Shown piece by piece: positions 10,701 to 56,969 of a stretch of 64,000 bases of DNA. Both the position numbers and the translations under genes were made by a program. This DNA is from Raja brachyura (lineage: Eukaryota): positions 20,894,001 through 20,958,000 of the forward strand of contig OY740794.1 in the NCBI GenBank assembly GCA_963514005.1, written 5' to 3'. The notes below the pieces were generated by a model, which worked only from the letters and a program-made list of their open reading frames with translations, had not been told where the DNA came from and searched no databases. Every line of letters starts with the position of its first letter. The first letter of the stretch is position 1.

Positions 10701-12529
10701 AAATTGTCCCGATGGACAGTCATTTATTGAGAGGAGAGAATGGTTCTTCTCCAATGTTTTGGTGAGAAGAAACCGGAGCCAGGTTTTATTCATTATGTTT
10801 ATTTTTATACGAGCAGTATTGTGTCAATCGGCCCTTCGAGTCAACTCCGCCATTCAATCATCGCTGATCTATCTGTCTTTCTCAGACCCATTCTCCTGCT
10901 TTCTCCCCATTTTAATGGATAGATCGAACACTATGATAATTTTATGAAACCGCAACTCGTACATTTCTCAATTTTCACTCTCCCTTCTACCATATATTCG
11001 CTTTAAACATCACTGTCACACTTGACTCCAAGAAGGTCAGTCGTCTCCAAAGCGTCAAGTGATTTGGATCAAGATTGACCCGCAACTCTGCCTTGCTTAC
11101 CTAAATTGNNNNNNNNNNNNNNNNNNNNNNNNNNNNNNNNNNNNNNNNNNNNNNNNNNNNNNNNNNNNNNNNNNNNNNNNNNNNNNNNNNNNNNNNNNNN
11201 NNNNNNNNNNNNNNNNNNNNNNNNNNNNNNNNNNNNNNNNNNNNNNNNNNNNNCTCACTCTCACTTAATATCGCTCTNNNNNNNNNNNNNNNNNNNNNNN
11301 NNNNNNNNNNNNNNNNNNNNNNNNNNNNNNNNNNNNNNNNNNNNNNNNNNNNNNNNNNNNNNNNNNNNNNNNNNNNNNNNNNNNNNNNNNNNNNNNNNNN
11401 NNNNNNNNNNNNNNNNNNNNNNNNNNNNNNNNNNNNNNNNNNNNNNNNNNNNNNNNNNNNNNNNNNNNNNNNNNNNNNNNNNNNNNNNNNNNNNNNNNNN
11501 NNNNTTTATCTATTCCTATTATCTAAAACATTCATTTGTTGTCGGTCTATGGATAATAGGGTTGTTGAAATCTCAACACCACACAGCATGGTGTGTGTGT
11601 GTGTGTGGGGGGGGGGGGGGTGGGGGGGGGGGGACACTGTCATGACCGAAAGTAGTTTAGGCAAACATTTGTGCAAACTAATCGATAAACTGGGGTCAAC
11701 TTCTATTCAGAACAATTGTTTGCTGGTTCAACTATCTAGTCATCTAGTTCGGGTTCAATGATCTGGACTACACATTTGCATTGACCTTATCTGGGGCCAT
11801 GTTTGCTTGCATTTCATATGCTTATTTATGTTCTTAATTAACATGGATGCCCCTTTCCCTCCCGCATCCTATCGAAAAAAGTGTAGAAAAGTGTAGGCTA
11901 ATTCGTGGAGTTACATCACCTACTCTTCCCAACCTCAAAACCAAGTCGATTTTTTTTCGACGTTCAGACTGGACCAGTCTGTAGGGTATTGTAAACATTT
12001 GACTTCCTTTTTAATAGTACCCAAGGGAGTGGGGCCGCATTTTCAACATTGGGGAAATGTAATGCCACATTAAGTTGCGCGTACTATTTAATAATTTGTA
12101 CTGTGATTATATAAGGAAGATTCGTGAATTTGGCGGTTAAAACCACATTCTATAGCACATAATCCCTTCATTAGCTGTGACCTAGATTAGTTCAGTACGA
12201 ATTTAAATATTTATTCTTGAAGTGTTTTAAGCAAAGAGTTATATTTACGTTGAATCCGTAAGTAAACACACCATGTCCTACATTTGGCTATCCACTAAAT
12301 CTCCTGTGGAAATTTTGAAGTATATCTTCATGTATTCTCTTCATTTAACATGTTTGTTTCAAAAGAAGGTAGTGCGTCGATGAGTGGATCTAAACTTTGC
12401 AAATAACTAATTCATTGATAAATTCCATTCATCGTTATTGGATTAGATTAGGTTTACATTAGAATAGTGCATTGTGAGTTTCATCCTTTTTTAAGTATCA
12501 TATCCTTCATTATTAATCTATACCATCCT

Positions 12530-42243: not shown

Positions 42244-43390
42244 CTGTGTGAGTTCTTTTGTGGATCTTGAGATTTTCTGATCGAGCAAAGACTTTGCCGC
42301 AGCCGGGGAATGGGCAGGGAAAAGGTTTCTCGCCAGTGTGGACTCTGATGTGATTTACAAGTTTATATTTGGCTTTGAAAGGCTTTCCCTCTCTTGGACA
42401 CTCGTCCCAGAAACAGATATGGTTCGACTGCTCTGGTCCCCCTACGTGTTCCACAGTTACGTGAGTAACAAGTTCGTGCATCGTACTAAAAGTTTTTGAG
42501 CATGGTTTTTTAGTGACAGGGTCCGGCTCAGTCCACTTGCAGATCAGTTCCTGCTTGATAGGTTGCCTCATGTAGCGAAAGAAAGCACCTGGGCCGTGGT
42601 GGGCTGCTAGGTTCATGCCACCGTAGCTATGTAGAGGGGAAGAGGCAAAAGGATCACTCCTGGAACTTGCCACTTGGCTGTAGTGTTCAGACCTGGCGTA
42701 CATATCTCCAGGTAGCCCCAGTCTTAACTGTCCGTTCAGATGGTGTCCAGTTGGGGCTGGATGGGGAGTCTGATCATGGAGTCCTGGGAATAGAGAGTGG
42801 CTTCCAGCCTCGGGGTGACCATGGTGTCCGGGATAGCTACCTGTTGTTGATACAAACATTCCGTGGTGAGAACTCGTGCCAGGATATTGATCTGTGAGGC
42901 CAGGCATGACTGAGGATGTCAGATCTCTGCGGATGAGGAAGTCTCTACCTGCCGAGATAGCCTGGGCAGTATAGCTGGCGTGAGAGTGCGAGACCGAATA
43001 ACTGACTGCTGCTGCCGCCTGCGCTGGGCCATACGCTGCCGTTGGATTGGAGACAACATCAGCGTGGCCTGCCATATGATGGTGATGGTGGTGGTGGTGG
43101 TGGTGGTGGGGATGGGATGGGCTGAGTTTAAGTGCCGCGGCGGCTGCAGGGTGCCCCATGTGTTCAGGCCCGAATGGACTCGGCCCCAGGCGGGGTTCTC
43201 CAGTATTCTCCCCAGGGTGCGTGTGTGCCATTGAGTGGGGATGGCCGCTGAGCCCCGGGAAGCCTGTCATGCTCTGGGGGGGATGGTGATGATGATGATG
43301 GTGGTGCGCTCCTGCCAAGTCTACTAATCTCAGCGCTGGGTTTCGCTTGGCGAACGATGGGTCCACCATCGGACTCCCCAAAGCATCCAT
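42244..43390 (-). CDS. zic4: Zic4 coding exon 1: N-terminus with His tracts, ZF-NC region and C2H2 fingers 1-3
   Basis: The ORF runs [27 protein letters not shown]...[19 protein letters not shown]...HKRTHT and ends at a phase-1 donor G|GTCAGT (GT at 42243-42242). The N-terminus is of the Zic4/5 subgroup type, and head-to-head linkage with Zic1 identifies it as Zic4 rather than Zic5. The ORF-track tail (GQYLRR...) is intron read-through. Confidence 0.95.
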
Positions 43391-43445: not shown

Positions 43446-43532
43446 TTACCGAACTTTGAAAACTCGCCCTTTGCCAACGTGGAAAGCCATTCGGTGTAGA
43501 GAGTGCAGACGGATGGCAGCAGCAGGAAGCAT
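43446..43532 (-). other. Zic4 upstream ORF (MLPAAAIRLHSLHRMAFHVGKGRVFKVR*)
   Basis: ATG at 43532, TAA at 43448-43446, ending 55 nt before the main ATG. Confidence 0.45.
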
Positions 43533-43534
43533 TG

Positions 43535-43775
43535 AGAAACTGAATTGAAATTCATGAACAGCTTTGTAGCCCGTCGGGCTCCGCGAGCAACACGCCATCT
43601 CATTGGTGAGTTCTCAATGATAGACAGTGCCAGTTACGGACCCCAGACGGGACACATGCGTATTACACCCGACCGATGTTTGATGGGGTGGCGGGGAGGG
43701 GGTGGGGGGCAGGGTAGGGCATTGGCAATGGGTAAGGGAGGGAGGGGGGGAGTTGAGGGGTGAATGGGAACATGG
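43535..43775 (-). promoter_or_regulatory. Probable Zic4 proximal promoter
   Basis: Minus-strand CCAAT boxes at 43606-43602 and 43725-43721, a YY1-like AGATGGCG (43600-43593), G-rich Sp/KLF-type tracts (43685-43770) and an Inr-like TCAGTT at 43543-43538. Confidence 0.6.
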
Positions 43776-46700
43776 AAAATTCTTTTTGGCTGAAGGGCGT
43801 GGGATTTTTCTGCTAGTTTCTTGAAACACACTAATTTTATTAAGGAAATCTGTAACCGTTTTCGTCTATTTCTGCTCTTCTAGGGGTAATCAGCTAAGGG
43901 AATAACAAAAGCTGTACATCTTTAAAAGTTGATCAGAGCGGGAGTTTTTTTTGTGAAAATATCATAAATAGCGAATATTTGCCGTTTGATACCTCCTTTC
44001 TGTGTTCACTTTTGCTAAAATCTGGTCGTTGCCGGGAGCTTTCGCCAACGATAAATTGAGAAGCATTTAGGATTCTGGTCTATATAAAGTATTCTCAACT
44101 ATGAAATTAAATTATGTGCGCTGATTATTAATCTGGATCTCACTTTAATTTAGAGAGATTAAAAGGGCAAATAAAGCAGGGATTCTGCATTGCTGCAGGA
44201 TTAAAAAAATAATAATATGAGGTGTTACAACTGTGTTTCTTTCACGGACAAATATACAGTTAGACGTGTAGGAAAGTTTACCCGGTGTCTGGGCCAGTCA
44301 AACACCAGTATCTGTTTTGCAATACCAAACACTGTGTCCCGCTCACCGCTGTACTGATCCACAGCAGATCCTGTGGTTTATGCAAGAATTTAGTTTTTGC
44401 GGGCAAGAAGGTTCGGCACTATACCTTAAAATGAGGTTATGGCCTGTTATACTCTGGCCGGATATTAGTTAGTGATTTTTTATCTTTCCTGACACTCGCA
44501 GACTGCCAGGCGTGTTATGTTTTTTTGACAAAATCAGACGGCTGGTGTTCTTAGCGGCACAGACGATCAAAGAGATTCCCAGTCAGAGGCATCTGTTAAC
44601 TTTTTTTTCTTCCCGAGACTGAGTATGAAACTTTCTCAGCATGTAATAACTTATTGAGTTCTCTTGCCCGCAGTCCCGGCTTGGTAATTCTGTAAGCTAG
44701 AGTCCAGGGAAAGTTTGGCTTTTCGAGGAGGATGTTGGATCGGACTTGAAGGTGGGAATGGGGGAGGGGGAGAGGGAATACTTCTATTTTCTTAGGCGTT
44801 GTATTTTTTTTAACCCCGGTCGGTACTGTTTTTCTACAGATTGGCAAGCGATTTGAATTACTGCCTACTTCACATGGATGCAAACGTGTTTCGTTTTAAA
44901 ACTAAACGTGTTTCCAATTCCAAAACTACAGCTTGCGAAGGCGATCCTAGACCGTGCTTCGAGATCCGCTTCACACAGCGTAATCCGCAAATAGGAAACC
45001 CGCATCGCTTGTGGTGGAAAAGAAAGTAAAGTGGAGAGTGTTGCGGGAGGCCCGCAGAAAGATAACGTGATGATAAATTACCGTGTGCTTGTATCTTTGC
45101 ACGGGCACACGTGAATGAAAGGCTTTTAAAGCGATCTCCCGTCTTCATATCAGCCTTACGATTTCATATATTTATTCTAATACCCGAACGCAATGCTGCT
45201 TACAATCCCTCCCCCAACATACAGTCTTATGCCTGCATCTGTAACTTGCTCTTAGTGCAGATCGTCTGTGTACGTCGCCTTGAGTACAGACGTCTGCCAT
45301 CTAAGTGAAAAGTAGTTTAGACTTTGATTTTTCAGAGAAGACCAGGGTGACAAAACGGGCTACTAACTCAAACATGTACGTTGTGGCTCCTCAGATTATT
45401 CACCAAGGGTACAAAAGGGGAACGGAAACCTAGTGCTGCGATATCCGTGGATTTAGGCCGTCGTTCTAAGCTGATCAACGGCAGGGCTTGAAGGCTGCAG
45501 TCTTGCTGCACACAGCAGACCTACAGTGCAAGAGAGAGAGAAAAAAAGGTAGGTTTTCAAAGGGAGGTGGGAGTTATAATGTGGAGAGAAATTTGTGGGG
45601 GCGGGGGTGGTGGTGGGAAGAAACAGAAATACCAAATTTAAGCTGGGAGAGAGATTAGAAGGAGAAAAGGCGTAAGCAACGTTATACGTGTTGGGAATGT
45701 ATCCAGAGAAACAAGGAAGAAAAAAATGGTTAAAAAGTATGATCAGATGAGAACACGTGGGGGAGGGATATAGGCATGGCGGTGGGGGGAAAAATCACAC
45801 AGTTGTTCAAACATTTCTCTTTAGTCATGGCAAATATGTTGAATATAATGAAAGATTTGCTCAATTTGTAAACACTAACCTTCAAAACGCAAGGAGGGCC
45901 AGGAAGATAATTCAGAAAAAAAATGTTATTAACGCATATTCACTGTCAAACAATGATTTCACATATGGGTATTAAAAGGCTTTGGAGTATCTCATGCAAT
46001 AATACTTGCACTACGGTGTATGCTTTATATTTATAAACAGCAAATATTTCAATAGTTGACGTTGTTATTTCTGTTAATTCACGTACTATTTGCATCTACC
46101 ATATTTTGACCATCAGGTGGAATCACAAAGCGGGTGAATAATCTATAGATTGTTGCGTGTTTTTATTTATCACCCAAAGAAAGCTCTGCTGTGCAACAGA
46201 GAAGGATGCAGTGTAGATCTGTGAATGCTGACACGTTTATACCTTAGCCTCTAGGGCTTCACACTGCAGGCTTAAAATGGGATTTGTACATGTGCGTCCG
46301 CATTACCTGATCGAGCCCCCACCTTAGTGTCCGTTTGCCTGCTGTCTTCCGAGCAATTGTTCAGCAGCAATTGTCAATTCCTAGAAAAGAATAGACTGCT
46401 TATGCATGTTTCAATATATAAATGTTTCCGTAAACGTAAATATACGAGAAACATACAAGTAAATTATAATGTTGAATTACATGTTCACATGTTGTCACTG
46501 TGGATACGTTATTCCACGTATGCATGCACTATTACACCTAAAGTATCGAGGGCTGCAAATTTTGCAGTATTGTTTCCTGTCTTTGAAGTAAAAAACACTA
46601 GACAGTAAGAATATTCCATTACGGTAGACTTTCAAATAAAAAAATAGTCAACGTGGGATATACTCTTCGCTAACGTTACTAATGCTACATAATAAATGCA

Positions 46701-49640
46701 TTTTAGCCAGATGAAACATTTTGTGCTTTACATTCAGTATAGGATATATTAGATATGGTGAGACGTGCACTCATACCTAACAATAAGGTTGAGGTGATTC
46801 AGTAATTCACTTTATTGTGTTATATCATTGATCCCTTCACACAATCATATGTTTTATTTCAAAAATAAAATGTAAACATCGCTAAATTATGTGAGATTTG
46901 CTTTTCTGGAAGAGAAGTGCAACATTTTCCCCAAATTGTCTAGAAATTAGAATGGTACTCTTATTTTCATTTCTTAGATTGTTTTCCAATGTGATTAAAA
47001 CATCACATAACAAAACGAGCTGGATTTTATATCCTCCTTATGATCGGCAGTTCACAGCTTCCTGTACCCCATTATAAACAGGAAATAATTTCAGAATTCC
47101 AGGTCTGTAGACTACAGGATCAACACTAAAGAAGTCCAACAGAGATGCCAAGGAACTTTGATTATACCTTTGTGTTGTATGAAAAACAGCGGAAAAAAGC
47201 ACTACGAGGAATGCAATAAATAGACATGGTACTCCGCATAGTTAAAACACAACTGAGCAGTGTAAATTCCAAATTATTTCCTCGCAGAATTGTATTTCGA
47301 AGAACACATTGGAAGGGAACAGATTAGGAAAATAATCTTTTTTGATAACATCTCGGTGGTGGCGTTATTTTGATGCAATTTGTTCATGTCCTTTTTGACC
47401 AAATTTGATATGAAAAGTAGCGAAAAATCTCGCTATTTTGGGTCCCAATATTCCATGCGTTATACTCATTTCTTTCAACCCATTCATTGAACGTTTAACG
47501 TAATGAAGAAGGAAATTCTTCATTCTCCTACAGTTTAATTCAGCTTGTTGCAAGTGCGTGAGTTGGTGCATGTTTGCAGTTTAAATCATAAGGTATAATC
47601 TAAGGATATCCTGATTGATATTGCCAATAAACACAATGGGCCCATTATATTTCTGGCAAAGGGCAATAGGTTGTGCATTAAATCACCCCCAAAAACTTAA
47701 AATCGAGCAACATGAAGCATTGGACAGCATTTTTAACAAGCAACATAATATGGGATAGTATGTCTAATAGCTAGGATTGACTGCGCACACTCAAGCTGTG
47801 AGTGGTTTACGTTAGTGATGTGCGGTGTTGGAATTCCGTGCCATTCTATCTTATCAAGATACATTTTGCAAATATTTAATTAAAGAAGTTTGATTATGAA
47901 GACGGGTATAACATGTTTTATGTGTAAAATATGCAAACTGTCCATGTTAAATAAAACCAGAATAATATTCCAGATTAATGAAAGTAGCAACTATAACATA
48001 CTGAATGATAGACACATCGTGGTTAATTAGCAACATCAGCGTGGTGCACTTTATACAGAAAGCAGAGTTACTTTTTTATCTTTGCTGCATTTTAAAATGA
48101 GATGTTTATCCTGTACTTGGCGTACATACGATGCTACATCCAGGCCCCACCCCCTTGTAACGGAGGATATTAATTTCATGTACCAATAAGTCTTAGACTT
48201 TTGTCTGGCTAATTATATTGTTGAAAATAATCTTCAAGCAGCACCAATTGATTGCATTGTTTGATTTTGCCTGAGCAATATATCAGTATCTCCGCCATAT
48301 CTGCTTTTCACGCGTCTTTTTGCAGACGTCCACTTTAAAAAAAACACAGTTAAACATTATCATAATACATTTCTTCTAATAACTGAAACAGTAAAAGCTA
48401 TAAAAGCAGAATCGAGGGAGTATAGTTGTTTTCGATGTATTTATAGACGAAAGAAAGCATTTGTTTCAAAATATGCTTTAGTTTCTCCGAAGGAGGCTAG
48501 GATGTAATAACAGGTTATCACCATGCTAGAGAAAAATGGGTGCTCTGTATACAGTTCTCATTACAGTTAAGATCACTAGTTGCACTTTTAATGTAGCTAC
48601 AATATAAACACACTACATATAAAATGCTAAATTATACGCGATTTTGAGAGAATTCAACATACTTTTCAATGTCGGAAACAGATACACGTGATTAGTTAAT
48701 TTACCCGCTGCGTTGACCGCGGAGAATAGATACCGTAGTCTATATCTCACCACAAGTTTATGACTGGAACTGATTAAGCAGCGATGGAAAGAAGCTAGAA
48801 ACCAGATAACTTGTACCATTACGATTGTATCTTTGTAAGCAAAGTTATACTATCTAAAGATATACCACACTTCCCATGTCTAAAATCGTCATCGCAATTC
48901 AGCAACTAATATCAGCACTCTTTTGCGAATTATATTGAAGTATTCCAAATTTATACCAAATTTAGAGAATCGATGCCTATGAATGTCTATAACTTGAAGG
49001 ATATACATTTTGGTATTGTTCTGAAAAATGTCCTTATACCTTTAACTGTAATCATGTCCACTAGCATTGCGTTGTATTCCTTTTTTGCAAACACAGAGCA
49101 ATTATGGAGAAAAAGATCTCCTCGTTCAAGTTGTTGCCGAATTACTGCTAACTTTACACTAAAAAATAGTCTTGGTGACACTAACCCGAAAATGCGTTTT
49201 GCTAACATTATCATTGTTAAATAGTGGTGATGCAGGAAAGCTTTATCTGGAATGAATCTGAGAATTATGGTTGTGGTTATACATTTATATGTAGATACCT
49301 GTAACGCCGATATTTAGGAAGATAGAAACCCACCAAGAAAACCAAAGCTCCACTCCAAAGATGGTCTAATATACTCTTCCAAATCACATTATATTCAAAT
49401 TATCCGTAAATGAACAAAATAATGCAACTGTCATGGAAAAATATGGAATCTACGTAGACTGGGTCGAAGGTTGTTGTTACAATACTATGGTCGTCAAATA
49501 TTAATACTGGTACTTTCAGGCAGGGTACATTGATCTACAGCAAACAGCTGCTTGCGGGATGTACTGTCACTAATTTATACAGTGAGCGACGACATAAAAC
49601 AATGTAAATGACCACGATTCAGACTGGAGGTCGAAAACGA

Positions 49641-50203
49641 NNNNNNNNNNNNNNNNNNNNNNNNNNNNNNNNNNNNNNNNNNNNNNNNNNNNNNNNNNNN
49701 NNNNNNNNNNNNNNNNNNNNNNNNNNNNNNNNNNNNNNNNNNNNNNNNNNNNNNNNNNNNNNNNNNNNNNNNNNNNNNNNNNNNNNNNNNNNNNNNNNNN
49801 NNNNNNNNNNNNNNNNNNNNNNNNNNNNNNNNNNNNNNNNNNNNNNNNNNNNNNNNNNNNNNNNNNNNNNNNNNNNNNNNNNNNNTGTTTTTTTNNNNNN
49901 NNNNNNNNNNNNNNNNNNNNNNNNNNNNNNNNNNNNNNNNNNNNNNNNNNNNNNNNNNNNNNNNNNNNNNNNNNNNNNNNNNNNNNNNNNNNNNNNNNNN
50001 NNNNNNNNNNNNNNNNNNNNNNNNNNNNNNNNNNNNNNNNNNNNNNNNNNNNNNNNNNNNNNNNNNNNNNNNNNNNNNNNNNNNNNNNNNNNNNNNNNNN
50101 NNNNNNNNNNNNNNNNNNNNNNNNNNNNNNNNNNNNNNNNNNNNNNNNNNNNNNNNNNNNNNNNNNNNNNNNNNNNNNNNNNNNNNNNNNNNNNNNNNNN
50201 NNN
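49641..50203. other. N-runs (masked simple repeats or gaps)
   Basis: N-runs lie at 4667-4861, 8602-8752, 10349-10498, 11109-11253, 11278-11504, 25148-25342, 26766-26924, 49641-49885 and 49895-50203. They vary in length and most abut TA, CA or TATC-like sequence. Confidence 0.8.
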
Positions 50204-53200
50204 CAGGCAACAGACAGACAGATTTGCGTTATGAGGACAACATTATTTTGTGTCAACAGCCTATCAAATGAACAAATTACTACTTAGTTTATTGTTGGTA
50301 TTTCATTGAAAGCGCGATAATACCAGAGAAAGATTTGAAAAATACCTTGATTAGTATAACACGCGGTTTCAATTGTAGTTATATTAATTCGAATTCTATG
50401 AATTATTCATTTTGCAAGCTTGCATCTTAGTGGCTCGGTTTCTATTTTTGATATAAGTTAGAAATTCGATGATGCTAAATGTCACGCCGGTACTGGAACT
50501 GGTTTTGTTCAGAGTTCGGCGTGTATTAAACAATGCCGAAGATATTCCACGAGCTGGCAATCATTGTTTTAAGTAAAGAACGTCAATTCAAAGGAAGTTT
50601 AAAAAAAAACTATGAGAAAATATCTATCATCTTTACAACATTTCGGGTTTTCTTTGGATGTCATTTCTTTCCACGTGTATGTAGGGGCGAGTAAAGGCGT
50701 GTATCAATTAAAAAAGTAACTAACCTGCAAAATGCTCATTGTCATATTTCGCCGTGAGTCTGCATTTCACTCCAAGGAGGAACCAGCAACTCTAGGGGAT
50801 GTTTTGACAACCAAATAAAAAGTCCAATCGTGGTAACTTTTTCTAACAAGGTTGCAGATAAATATATATTTATATTACTAAATAACTTTGCGGGCACGAA
50901 AGCTTCAATAAAGAAGTTAAGTTGAAACGTATAGGGCTGCATTTAGGGCTACAAGTGTTCATTCGGTAAATAATATTAGCAATGCATAATACACAGCGAA
51001 ATTACAGTTTGCCTTTCAATTTCTTTATGCCATTATTTTCTGCTACAACATTAGTATCGCAGTGGATATGATTGCTGAGCAAATGCAAGCTCCATTTGTT
51101 TTGAATAGTTCAAAAGCTACAAATGTAAAATGCATATTGCATACACATCTTTTTCCCCCCAAATAAATTATTTATCTACAAATTAGCACAGTGATCATAG
51201 CATATTGCTTATACCGTTATGATTTTAGGTATATATTGTTTATATATATATTAGGTATATATATATATTCTTTATATTAATAATCCTAACAACATCTTAT
51301 TTGCTACGTATATTTCAGTCAGTTCGTGTCGTAATTTCAATATCCTAGTGCTGAATAATCCTTACAATATCCTCCATAATGTCTACCCCTCCATTCACTC
51401 GTATTTCAAAAATGTTGGTAAATTTTCGGGAGCAACATAAAAGGATGTTGCGCCTTGTCGTGCATTAAGGTCATTTTTCAGTAACTATGAAAGATCGACA
51501 TCAACAAAGCGCACTGATTTCTAAAGTTATGTTTCCTTTCTATGTTCAAATACTCCAAACTCGCTCTTCTCGTAATTCAAGAATCTCCAGTTTTTAAGAC
51601 TTCGAGCACCCTTCAGCATCCATAGCTGAAGAATAAATTAAGAAAAAAAGGAAAGAATAAGTGATAAAGACCTGTTTTGTTTTTCAATCCCACATTGGAT
51701 TTTTTTAAAATCCCTTTGAATATCGTAATGTGAAATCCCTGTCTAATTGTAACTATACTAGAAATAATTCCAGAATATTGTAATAGATCTGCATGGACAA
51801 ATTATCCAATACACTTTTCGCACCTCCAACATCGATGCCATGCACAGATTTCAAGGCAGGCAGTCAGATAATGGGTAAAGCCAAGGGTGGCCTTCAAAGT
51901 TCTGCTTCCCGCCCCTAAACTAGCCCAGGCAACCTTCTGATAGCTGCAATTTTAATACAAAACTATCTGCTGAAAATCTCAATAACGTGGCCATTATCGA
52001 AAGTCTAATAACTCTGTCTAACTTCCAGCTTCTGGACGTTATTTTAAACAACAATTTGAAATTATATTGGACTTTACCCAGAAATCACCAGAATACCAGT
52101 TGAAAATTATCTTTGCTTTGATGACATTTTAGTTTAGTGCCAGTGTCCAAATCATACATATTTCCGGCTGCATGGTTATTAGTCTTTTTTTCCTCAAACA
52201 AAGCAAATAGATAGCAAGCAGATCACAGAAGCGCCAACGACTAAAATCCTGTTGTTTCGACTATTATGGATATACCTTATGCTAGTGTGGAAACATTAAA
52301 ACGTCAATGTGCATTCAATTTGATATTTTATATATAGAACAATTCCATATTGAACAATTGTTTTCCATTTCGACGTTTTAGTTCCAGGACAGCTAATATT
52401 TTTCGAAGGTATACATTATGTGGCATTGTGTGGCTTTGGCACATGTGGTCGGTCACGGGTCATGGGTCAAACGATATGGAATTTCAAAAGTCGGCGACTT
52501 CAGAGCTATCCTTGCGCGCAGAAGCCAACTGACTAACTTCATTTGAATCAGTTTTAATAGAGATAAGTATAATAAACGAAACGATAATACACTGGCTCAG
52601 GAATCAAACAATGCGATCAACTCGAAGAAATTCGGCCTCAGAAACATTCAAATTAACTTTGAAATAATTCTAATGTCCATTCCAATACTTGGAATATTTG
52701 CTTAGAGGAAGCAAGTAAACAATTATCAGTTCATTATCTTAGAATTCTAAAGCGTTTTGCTTGCAGGAAAAACACCGATAAATGACACGCGTTGACCGAC
52801 GCAATTGTTGAAGAGCTCTCTCACTTACTAGAACATACATTGGAACACAAAATAATTCTAGTTGCGAGTGTGGTTTATACGCGTAGCTGCGTTTTAAGGA
52901 CAGTAACAGTTAATACATGTTTGTCGCAAATAAGCGATTGAAAGATTAACTTCAAATTAGAAATCAAATTTCAGTTTTAAATTGAATTCATGGAATACAT
53001 CGAATTTTAAATCAAGTTAAAACAATTCCTTTTGTAAACTAGTACTTCAGCCTACAGACATATATCCCCCCCACCCCCGCTCCTCCCTTCATAGAACAAC
53101 CAAACGCTTTGCTATCCATCGACCGAAAACAATCCGAGGGATAATATCGGTACACACAAGTGCTTTCGAATGGAAATGCATAATTCAAAGCCACTCGCAC

Positions 53201-55509
53201 CTAGTTTTGCTTTTATTGGAACATGATGGCTCCTGACAAGGGCTATTCTGAGGAAACAAAAATCTGACTGATATCTCTATTCTCTTTTTAGTCAATTGCA
53301 TTTACATGAAAGATGATGGAAATTCAGGGGTCAGGAGTCGTTTAGTATAAGTCACTTGAATACACGTGCCTCTCTTACCGTCCGCCACCTGTTGAAGAAG
53401 ATGTCTTCGATCATTTAATTCAGGTAACTGAAGTTTAAAAAAAATCTACTTTGTAGCGGCAACTAGGTAGTCATTCTTCATTTCGCCTTTTCAAGGTTTC
53501 TGGAAGCAGTTAGGGAATGTATGATGAAGCAGAAATGAGCCGTCAGGATGATATTTTAATGGCTTATATGTCACGTCGGTGCATGCGGCTTTGAACTCAA
53601 GCAGCCTGCGTTTCCTGCGGAGAACGCCGCAAATCCCACTTGATAACTTCTACCATCCTTCAAATTTTAAAATCAGTCCTTCTTTGTATATTGGGAGAAG
53701 TAGTCTAAAGATAATGCTATGGGAAACGTTTACTTTTCATACTCCTAAAGTGTCCCTTTAGAATTTGCACACTCAATGAGCAGTAAATCTTTTTGAATCA
53801 AATTGCTCCAGCTTCTGCTTCTAGACTGCTGTGATTTTAATATCAATGTTATCAGTATATTGCATCATTTAAAGTAACGCTATGAGGCTAGCTATTGTAA
53901 TCACCCAGCAAGACAATATTATGTTCTACTTAAATCTTTAAGAACGCAGGATATCCAGTGCACAACCAAAGCAGATAAATAAGATTTCTTTTTGTGCACA
54001 AATATGGGACCTATCGCGTCAGAATAGTCAGTTTAACCACAATTAGTATCTTCTCATAAGGCAATTTTAGACCATTAAAGTACCTTAAAATTACACTAAT
54101 ACCCTATTCAATACCCACACCGGCCTCATGCTTTCAGCAAAGTAAGCACGTAGCCTCAAATTGTTGTAAATTGGAAACCCAAGTGGCATGCATTTTAATT
54201 TGTTTTTGCTATAAGCTCTTAGTGCGAACATTGTCGTCAGGCTCCTACCCCGTAATGATAAACATGCTTCCTTGAGCAACAGCGCTACTGTAAAATATCT
54301 ATAGAACTTCGCGGCCGAATAACGTCCTAAGGTGGTCAATTAAACGCCGGGCTTTCGCATACTCCATTACCTTCGCCCGAAATATTTTGTTCGAAGTTAA
54401 CCTCTTGTACTTTAACAGTGAATACTTTTTTTTTTAAGTGTTTGTTTGAAAAAAAAGCGAGCAAACGTGTTCGTGTAAACTGGGTAATCACAAAACAGAA
54501 TTGGAAAGAGCATAGATTGGGGGAAACAAGACAACTATTTGAAAGCAGTGCCCTTCCAAAGTGATGGTTTGCTAACGGAGATAATAGTTGAAGGATGCGG
54601 TAAGACCTCTTTGTTATAAAATAAGACTTTAACTCGGAGGTTTAGCTTCAAGGAAGTTCATTGAAGTGGTGAACAAAAGGTAAATTGAACGATTCCGATT
54701 CTTTGTTGGCTTTTTACGTTTCTATTACTTGAATGTAATTAGACTTAATGAATATGCAAACCGTTGGCCTCACTTTAAAAAAAAACTTTATAGGGACACA
54801 GTAAATAGACTTTCACAAATTTGGGGCAGCGGATCGGAAAGTGTAAACTAAAAGATGATGTGGTAAAAAGCTATATTTTCCTTTACTGACGATGTGCATA
54901 AACAATTTCCGCAGTCATTGTCCGCAATCAATGAAAAGCGCACCACTTTTTATACATAGAGGGGGAAATCCTTACTTCCAGCTATTCGGCGATTGTGTGA
55001 GGACCTATAGATATGTATAGAGCAATTCATCGTCACCGTAGTAAAAAAAAGGACCAAGCAAGATGTTTTCAATCGCCTTTTACATGTGGAAAGACAGGTT
55101 AATCAAGGGTTTCGTCTCGAAAACAACCGAGTGTTGTATGTTTGTACTGAATCCAAACATATGCATTTTCCTAACCCAATTCAATAGAGTGTTCTTTCTC
55201 TTTTTGCTCACTCATCTGGGTAAGTGAATTTTCACCGGCGATCAAAAAGCTACTGAACAACAAAGGAAGCCGCCCGCTTTTTTTCCTAGTCTGGAGTTGT
55301 GGCACATTAACGAATTTCAAACAGTCTGACAAGGGGTGACTGAATTGTGAAGTCGAAGAAGACAAGAGTTTTCTTCTGTTCTCTCTCCCACCCCCTTTCC
55401 CTCCTCCTCTTTCCATATTATATATATAAAAAAAAGGAGAGGGGAGAAAAAGAAAGAAAATGCGGACGGCAATAATTTATCAGGAGCGACTGTCACGGGT
55501 GCACAATAC

Positions 55510-55700
55510 CTGGGATTGATGAGGCGGGCGGGCCAATCAGGAGGCGGGATGTGCGCCCCAAGCTGGTGATTGGCACCAGGGCACAACGGGGCAGCGCCAG
55601 CCTGGCCAATGGGTGGAGACGCCGAGCGCCACGTGACTCCTCCCCCAACTCCCATTCATCAAGGGGACGGTGTTGTCTTTTCAATTCATTTATCTGCAGG
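55510..55700 (+). promoter_or_regulatory. Zic1 proximal promoter
   Basis: A GC/CpG-rich patch with GGCGGG boxes (~55523-55548), three CCAAT boxes (55533, reversed at 55569, 55606), the E-box CACGTGAC (55630) and an Inr-like TCATTT (55686), about 300-450 bp upstream of the ATG. Confidence 0.75.
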
Positions 55701-55701
55701 A

Positions 55702-55749
55702 ATGATTGCCGCTATCATTCTCGAGCTCACCGCCCGGCTGATGAGGTGA
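55702..55749 (+). other. Zic1 upstream ORF 1 (MIAAIILELTARLMR*)
   Basis: ATG at 55702 with G at -3, TGA at 55747-55749, out of frame with the main CDS. Translation is not shown. Confidence 0.55.
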
Positions 55750-55791
55750 AAGTTTCTCCCCAGGAAGATAAACCGCAAAAGACAATATTGC

Positions 55792-55830: not shown

Positions 55831-55993
55831 ATTCCCACACGCTGAAGAGAGAGAAGAGAGAAAAATAAGGAGTTTTTGCAAGTCCTGCAGACAGACTCAG
55901 AGACTATTTTATATTAAGCAAGTTTCGTTGTGAATTGTTTGTAGTTTGCCTTTCTATATATTATTATTCACTTTCTACCCCCATCGCCAGACG

Positions 55994-56969
55994 ATGCTTC
56001 TGGACGCTGGACCTCAATATCCTACTCTAGGAGTGACTACCTTCGGATCATCCCGACATCACTCAACAGGCGATGTCAACGACCGAGAAGTGGGACTGGG
56101 GATAAATCCTTTCGCTGACGGGATGGGTGCGTTTAAAATCAGCCCCAGCACTCACGATCTCGCATCGGGTCAAACTGCCTTCACGTCGCAGGCACCAGGC
56201 TACGCCGCGGCTCTGGGTCACCACCCCGGCCATGTGAGTTCGTACAGCAGCGCTGCTTTCAACTCGACCCGGGACTTCTTGTTTCGCAATCGGGGCTTTG
56301 GGGAAGCGGCGGCGGCAAGTGCCGGTCACAGCCTCTTCGCTTCGGCCGCGGCTGCGGGCAGTTTTGCCGGACCCCATGGACATACCGACGCTGCGGGGCA
56401 TCTACTCTTCCCGGGGCTTCACGAGCAGGCGACGACCCACGCTTCTCCAAATGCACATGTAATGAACGGGCAAATGCGCTTAGGCTTTTCTGGGGACATG
56501 TATGGCAGAGCAGACCAATACAGCCAGGTCACTAGTCCCAGATCGGACCACTACGCCTCGACCCAGCTACACAGTTATGGTCCCATGAACATGAACATGG
56601 CGGCCCACCATGGGGCCGGGGCCTTCTTTCGTTATATGAGGCAGCCCATAAAGCAAGAACTGATATGTAAATGGATAGAGCCCGAACAGTTGACGAATCC
56701 TAAAAAATCATGCAACAAAACTTTTAGCACGATGCACGAACTAGTTACTCACGTAACTGTGGAACACGTAGGGGGACCAGAACAGTCGAACCATATCTGC
56801 TTCTGGGAAGAGTGTTCAAGAGAGGGAAAGCCTTTCAAAGCCAAATATAAACTTGTAAATCACATCAGAGTCCACACTGGCGAGAAACCTTTTCCCTGCC
56901 CATTCCCCGGCTGCGGCAAAGTCTTTGCTCGATCAGAAAATCTCAAGATCCACAAAAGAACTCACACAG
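55994..56969 (+). CDS. zic1: Zic1 coding exon 1: ZOC box, ZF-NC region and fingers 1-3
   Basis: The ATG at 55994 gives [23 protein letters not shown]...[14 protein letters not shown]..., a typical ZIC1 N-terminus. The phase-1 donor is G|GTATGG at 56970. Confidence 0.97.

Follow-up and report, generated by a model that had tools for sequence, protein, structure and literature searches.

The initiator consensus BBCA+1BW has been found at 40% of focused human start sites, with a higher frequency in TATA-less promoters (PMC5287114), and start-site choice has been reported to be fixed by NF-Y (PMC6624317). Hyperconserved mouse leaders usually turn out to be promoters, with 93% of 589 such leaders overlapping promoters (PMC9456764), and uORFs (upstream open reading frames) that are conserved and have suboptimal starts have been described for 13 Hox mRNAs (PMC8892498). 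In the Zic family, the Zic4-Zic1 pair is arranged head to head, 13 kb apart, and the model cited for the origin of the family is a tandem duplication followed by genome quadruplication (PMC6175831). The catalogued paralogous element of this family is distal and pairs ZIC2 with ZIC3 (PMC3595034), and four duplicated elements have been counted in the ZIC2 region (PMC2781166). Here we analysed a 64-kb stretch of Raja brachyura DNA (GCA_963514005.1, contig OY740794.1, positions 20,894,001 to 20,958,000; hereafter the window), which is the elasmobranch Zic4-Zic1 locus with its two zinc-finger genes head to head, and we describe a module in the 5' region of each gene that consists of a CCAAT box, a decamer identical in the two genes, an initiator match and a short uORF.

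The gene on the plus strand encodes a protein whose residues 1-110 are 95% identical to Callorhinchus milii Zic1, and residues 1-200 of the protein encoded on the minus strand are 95% identical to Scyliorhinus canicula Zic4; the main ATGs are at 55994 (+) and 43390 (-), respectively. We consider it probable that the two modules are conserved TATA-less CCAAT-initiator core promoters, a known kind of element, in which constraint acts on the DNA and not on a peptide. In both genes the 3' end of the decamer lies within a match to BBCA+1BW, and the CCAAT box begins 73 nt (Zic1) or 56 nt (Zic4) before the decamer, which places it at -82 and -65 relative to the candidate start. The usual range for CCAAT boxes is -60 to -100. 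A pattern scan for a TATA match found none in either 5' region, and both regions are richer in GC and CpG than a flanking control. The decamer, its upstream CCAAT box, its overlap with an initiator-like site and the ATG that shortly follows it had all been pointed out by a sequence-only reading of this DNA, and each was located here (Table 1).

The two modules resemble the focused promoters described above in having an initiator match, an upstream CCAAT box and no TATA in both genes, with a spacing that is kept in teleost Zic4; they differ in that the start sites and NF-Y binding are only predicted and in that the Zic pair shares bases beyond the initiator consensus (PMC5287114, PMC6624317). 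Among hyperconserved leaders that are promoters, such as that of Hoxa9 with its USF E-box, strong 5' conservation had likewise first been read as translational control, and Zic1 also has a CACGTG motif, whereas no internal ribosome entry site is claimed for Zic and Zic4 is without an E-box (PMC9456764). Neither Zic1 nor Zic4 is named in the supplementary files of that study that were searched, in which Zic5 is named.

Conservation in orthologues supports this interpretation. A mouse Zic1 primer used for chromatin immunoprecipitation (ChIP) with quantitative PCR agrees with 55669-55689 (+) in 19 of 21 bases, including the whole decamer, and the reverse complement of the second primer is identical to 55761-55781 (+) at 21 of 21 bases, both compared by eye (PMC8117147). 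The primer pair was designed on the Tlx3 peak nearest the transcription start site (TSS), and in the supplement rows of the same study the mouse Zic1 peak spans 980 bp, and 52 bp separate its summit from the annotated start. The sequence-only reading had also supposed a very similar segment in the human ZIC1 leader; the mouse primers show this stretch in a mammal. Because the mouse primers match and the peak sits near the annotated start, the Zic1 element is, on this comparison, conserved from elasmobranch to mouse and located within the start region.

For Zic4 we made use of named gene models with N-terminal extensions that reach into the leader (81 of 84 matches, three unnamed ones being excluded). 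Five named Zic4 extensions were tested, and two, from the pipefish Stigmatopora nigra and the mormyrid Brienomyrus brachyistius, were informative. The top tblastn match of the pipefish extension in the whole window is at 43606-43499 and begins at the CCAAT box (E 0.20). The mormyrid extension (tblastn E 43) was not recovered at rank and was found by frameshift-aware scoring only, on a stretch picked after inspection. In such scoring against the Zic4 leader the mormyrid extension beat 60 of 60 control tiles and the pipefish extension 59 of 60; against the Zic1 promoter neither was above background, with 7 and 45 of 60 tiles scoring as well. The distance from CCAAT to TCA in Zic4 is 63 nt in the mormyrid, 66 nt in the pipefish and 63 nt here, and in the mormyrid a CCA likewise lies at offset 90, and an ungapped comparison over the decamer region leaves 17 of 21 bases compatible. 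The exact decamer cannot be encoded in either teleost model (best 8/10 and 9/10). What is conserved in Zic4 is geometry, not a reading frame. Among Zic1/2/3 models (33 named of 36 matches), two with a recognisable start had extensions of at least 15 amino acids, and neither matched the module. Judged from these alignments, each element is conserved in orthologues, that of Zic1 in mouse and that of Zic4 in two teleost models, making three species in all. Retention of the motif and of the upstream ATG (uATG) had been proposed as a check: mouse Zic1 keeps the decamer, but the Zic4 uATG is not retained throughout, being possible in the pipefish and impossible in the mormyrid. The earlier observation is partly confirmed and its interpretation partly supported, the core-promoter half by anatomy and orthologue conservation.

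In such promoters, NF-Y would bind the CCAAT boxes 65-82 nt upstream and keep the region open, and TFIID would recognise the initiator at the decamer's 3' end and contact the DNA in its downstream contact region at approximately +20 to +35, where the second match between the two genes falls. Transcription would begin at 55688 and 43541 or close by. The second block that the two genes share may represent a downstream promoter contact or a second start site. The ATGs that follow would be cap-proximal, out-of-frame starts that may slightly damp translation and would encode no conserved peptide. Given that leaky scanning is expected at cap-proximal uATGs, it is expected here, where the uATGs are 14 nt (Zic1) and 9 nt (Zic4) from the presumed cap.

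Several points weigh against a core-promoter role as drawn here. The start sites at 55688 and 43541 are candidates from a motif match only, and Zic1 has a second initiator match, a perfect YYANWYY at 55715-55721 (+), which lies downstream of the uATG inside the AAIIL codons of the uORF, 29 nt beyond the first match. The 980-bp mouse peak cannot place the TSS to the base, and if its summit is near the decamer, the annotated mouse start would be tens of bases downstream, beyond the uATG, on what we take to be the strand of mouse Zic1. The teleost Zic4 evidence is back-translated from gene-model extensions with no intron assumed, and the mormyrid Zic4 copy may be a degenerate duplicate. Acceptor-like sites are present just before both main ATGs and the Callorhinchus Zic1 model uses an upstream exon, and some transcripts may therefore bypass these leaders.

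The likeness between the two modules was compared with chance in several ways. The sequence-only reading had allowed for chance in so short a match. In 212 of 1000 dinucleotide shuffles, the 500-nt regions upstream of the main ATGs had a word of at least 10 nt in common, and in open local alignment of these regions the module came top under three of four scoring schemes without being significant (P 0.24, 0.60, 0.37 and 0.68; 300 shuffles per scheme). Simple alignment of the two 5' regions did not bring the decamers into register, and whole-locus blastn returned coding exons and short chance-level matches, with the module not among the top 40. When anchored on the two initiator-like As, the segments from -10 to +50 outscored all 120 other sites with CCAAT and an initiator-like motif and all 1691 BBCABW sites, and their score was reached by 19 of 50,000 shuffles. 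With 9-16 candidate anchor pairs, and taking both initiators as start sites, the anchored likeness has a P of approximately 0.003-0.015, a value that is not corrected for window choice or for bias common to real promoters. The score is attained by 19 of 10,878 pairs of TCAKTT sites, namely this pair, seven overlapping windows, one case of zinc-finger coding paralogy and ten chance pairs. The likeness is restricted to about -10 to +50, as judged from the shuffles that scored as well with different segments (2/4000 at -10 to +30, 283/4000 at -90 to +50, and 306/4000 at -10 to +100). The part downstream of the decamer shows a mild likeness alone (P 0.011-0.059), the spacers between CCAAT and initiator are not alike, and testing one module against tiles of the window gave mixed results (tiles scoring as well: 4-52 of 356 and 12-45 of 228). 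A third exact decamer, at 40155-40164 (+), lies antisense in the Zic4 intron; the 150 nt upstream of it contain no CCAAT, the likeness does not continue downstream, and it behaves as a chance occurrence. The likeness of Zic1 and Zic4 is partly forced by the initiator consensus, and the excess may be ancestral inheritance or may be convergence together with chance.

Other explanations were weighed against a promoter function. The decamer might have been kept as a site for a homeodomain or other transcription factor such as Tlx3 and not as an initiator, given that the mouse Tlx3 ChIP sequencing peak spans the Zic1 start and that the qPCR amplicon contains the decamer; this appears unlikely, with the reported Tlx3 motif, TAATTA, not being in the decamer and the sole Tlx3 peak assigned to Zic4 lying 288 kb from its TSS (PMC8117147). 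The decamer is also not intact in teleost Zic4 models. Open promoters, moreover, often give ChIP signal. The sequence-only reading had in addition raised the possibility of a conserved M..AAI.L peptide common to both genes. Such a peptide would act on the ribosome or in trans. Four of five residues are indeed identical in one frame (AAIIL and AAIRL), three of the five nucleotide differences are synonymous, and the pipefish model permits an ATG and AAAI at the corresponding place. However, at least three of five mismatches at one codon position have a P of 0.167, or 0.50 for the best of three frames, and the pattern as written fits neither gene: the gap from M to AAI is one residue in Zic1 and three in Zic4, so the uATGs are out of register in the DNA alignment, and the encoded peptides are of 15 and 28 amino acids. 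CACCG, also noted earlier, does follow the AAI.L codons in both genes, but its phase differs between the two uORF frames. The pipefish cannot encode the R or L of AAIRL, the mormyrid cannot encode the ATG, and the frame is broken by net deletions inside the Zic4 uORF of 14 nt (mormyrid) and 22 nt (pipefish), as estimated from landmark offsets. The rows searched in the human, mouse and zebrafish tables of a catalogue of PhyloCSF-supported ORFs of at least 27 nt include none for the Zic1 5' untranslated region (UTR) and one for that of ZIC4, with a different nine-amino-acid sequence (PMC4568590). The supplements of PMC10032668 contain no ZIC rows, which says little because the short ORFs there were discovered in heart. 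The readable supplements of PMC11685710 contain no zic gene names, and nothing on Zic is found in PMC11057154 or in the main text of a 2026 NaP-TRAP preprint. As weak evidence, the frame of the Zic1 uORF (46 amino acids) had no match among proteins of 82-2000 amino acids, and neither uORF frame had a usable match in protein atlas searches. On the gene models, a shared peptide appears already largely refuted for Zic4, and given a codon test at chance level and no Zic1 5' UTR row in the catalogue files searched, we regard the peptide as very improbable. A peptide-independent inhibitory uORF of the Hox kind, with the Zic1 uATG being kept to lower or tune translation, would be compatible with a promoter role and is a less remote alternative, although still a doubtful one. 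The context of the Zic1 uATG is favourable in part (G at -3, but A and not G at +4), and its uORF is in a different frame from the main ORF, the ATG of which follows 244 nt after the uORF stop. All five uATGs of the two presumed leaders share a frame offset, but two are internal to the same uORFs, and none combines a purine at -3 with G at +4. Like the Hox cases, the Zic uORFs are short, out of frame, suboptimal in start context and located in the leader of a developmental transcription factor; unlike them, they are known from sequence alone, whereas the Hox uORFs are conserved from mammals to fish and have leaders defined by cap analysis of gene expression as well as ribosome footprints (PMC8892498), and in one teleost copy the first uATG of Zic4 is missing. 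That uATG, which the mormyrid cannot encode, is 9 nt from the presumed cap in a poor context. An ATG this near an initiator-like site is common (44 of 148 sites), and a start site downstream of the Zic1 uATG would exclude an inhibitory uORF.

Also compatible with the preferred reading as two core promoters is the proposal that the -10 to +50 segment is what remains of the core promoter of one ancestral Zic gene, which the tandem duplication copied before the vertebrate genome duplications. We hold this to be possible, and somewhat more so than the inhibitory uORF, but do not favour it. The anchored score and the mild downstream likeness speak for it, as does the very slow evolution of the Zic1 element seen in the mouse primer matches, and of the 25 elements conserved across bilaterians in PMC10735318, a paper that does not mention Zic, 12 are promoters. 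An origin before the tandem duplication was also part of the earlier interpretation; the likeness that would speak for it is significant only when anchored on candidate starts. Against it, no significance is obtained without the anchor, the module is missing from the leading whole-locus matches, and the exact decamer cannot be encoded in the two teleost Zic4 models. Both anchor and window were selected after the match had been seen, random initiator-like sites understate the likeness of real promoters, and the dissimilar spacers also count against descent. A module older than the tandem duplication would be expected to survive in some of Zic2, 3, 5 and 6. The decamer is not in the 341-nt mouse leader of Zic5, the Zic4 ohnologue, which has several CCAAT boxes and is the one sequence on which the comparison with other paralogues rests, and the decamer's single occurrence in the sheet of hyperconserved mouse leaders is in the unrelated Mgat4c (PMC9456764). 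Known paralogous conserved non-coding elements, namely the ZIC2/ZIC3 pair (PMC3595034) and Zic3-ME with its Zic2 copy (PMC6175831), are comparable as non-coding likeness between Zic paralogues. These cases are distal and come from whole-genome duplication, the catalogued pair being longer than 200 nt; the Zic1-Zic4 segment, in contrast, is 60 nt at the start site, would date from the older tandem duplication and is undetectable without an anchor. On top of descent, the two matching blocks might represent two initiation sites approximately 27-29 nt apart that flank the uATG, in which case start choice would decide whether a repressive uORF is present in the mRNA; we think this improbable.

Table 1 Features of the Zic4-Zic1 locus in the window, with positions counted from its first nucleotide
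Feature	Positions	Strand	Remarks
Zic4 exon 1, coding part	42244..43390	-	
Zic4 uORF	43446..43532	-	28 codons and stop; predicted from sequence
Downstream block common with Zic1, Zic4 copy	43506..43520	-	contains GCCAT at 43517-43513
Zic4 decamer	43541..43550	-	3' end within initiator match 43544-43539; candidate start A 43541
Zic4 proximal CCAAT box	43602..43606	-	65 nt before initiator-like A; can be encoded at corresponding place in two teleost Zic4 models
GC-box cluster around distal CCAAT (55533-55537)	55523..55548	+	pattern scan; function putative
Zic1 reverse-strand CCAAT box	55569..55573	-	
Zic1 proximal CCAAT box	55606..55610	+	82 nt before first initiator-like A
Zic1 E-box CACGTG	55630..55635	+	no E-box in Zic4 counterpart
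Zic1 decamer	55679..55688	+	3' end within BBCA+1BW initiator match 55685-55690; candidate start A 55688 (consensus: PMC5287114)
Zic1 uORF	55702..55749	+	15 codons and stop; predicted from sequence
Zic1 downstream block	55708..55722	+	10 of 15 nt common to Zic4
Zic1 exon 1, coding part	55994..56969	+	

Measured from the first initiator site, the presumed leaders are 306 nt (Zic1) and 151 nt (Zic4) long. The first ATG of the Zic4 uORF is followed by a second in-frame ATG at 43490, and 55 nt separate the end of the uORF from the main ATG. The sequence at both proximal CCAAT boxes is CCAATG (43606-43601, -; 55606-55611, +), and the resulting ATGs, which lie upstream of the presumed start sites, open ORFs of 54 (Zic4) and 46 (Zic1) amino acids across the module. 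The second Zic1 initiator match is one arm of a 6-bp inverted repeat that has the uATG in its other arm (centroid structure). The acceptor-like sites are pyrimidine tracts ending in CAG at 43432-43406 (-) and 55960-55990 (+), and the uORF stops fall within donor-like GTs at 43449 (-) and, in the same phase, at 55747 (+). The corresponding intron would be 244 nt in Zic1; in Zic4, an intron at 43449-43406 was rejected, given that its 44 nt are too few to be likely. Structured RNA was also rejected (six Rfam matches, all far below the gathering score and outside the module; folding z 0.56 and 0.01), as was a shared YY1 site because GCCAT is present only in Zic4, and a scan for sigma-70 promoters was set aside as irrelevant for vertebrate DNA.

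Elsewhere in the locus, most named Zic4 proteins start two codons earlier, at a position that is ATA here, with the next ATG being used (43396-43390, -). The segment 53306-53423 (+) has a GT donor after it and matches the additional N-terminal exon in the Callorhinchus Zic1 model (tblastn E 4e-10); with stops in its frame in the window, it is, by its sequence, either a conserved non-coding element or a non-coding upstream exon, approximately 2.3 kb before the Zic1 module. The top non-coding blastn match between the two halves of the locus pairs about 52595-52620 (+) with 48276-48248 (-) (29 nt, 86%, E 0.02), at distances from the two genes that do not correspond. Assembly gaps are present at 11100-11500, 26760-26930 and 49650-50200, the window containing 1776 N in total, and one gap lies between Zic4 and Zic1.

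In a mostly open-access literature, to which the studies of the mouse and Xenopus Zic1 promoters that PMC6175831 cites do not belong, we found no published description of a shared Zic1/Zic4 core promoter or of a Zic1 uORF. As a conserved CCAAT-initiator promoter, the element is ordinary. It indicates where transcription of elasmobranch Zic1 and Zic4 probably starts and which bases deserve attention when regulatory variants of ZIC1 are examined. If the proposed descent is true, it would be a rare case of core-promoter sequence retained between tandem paralogues older than the vertebrate genome duplications, and would suggest that the co-expressed Zic1 and Zic4 have in common a type of promoter responsive to the same enhancers.

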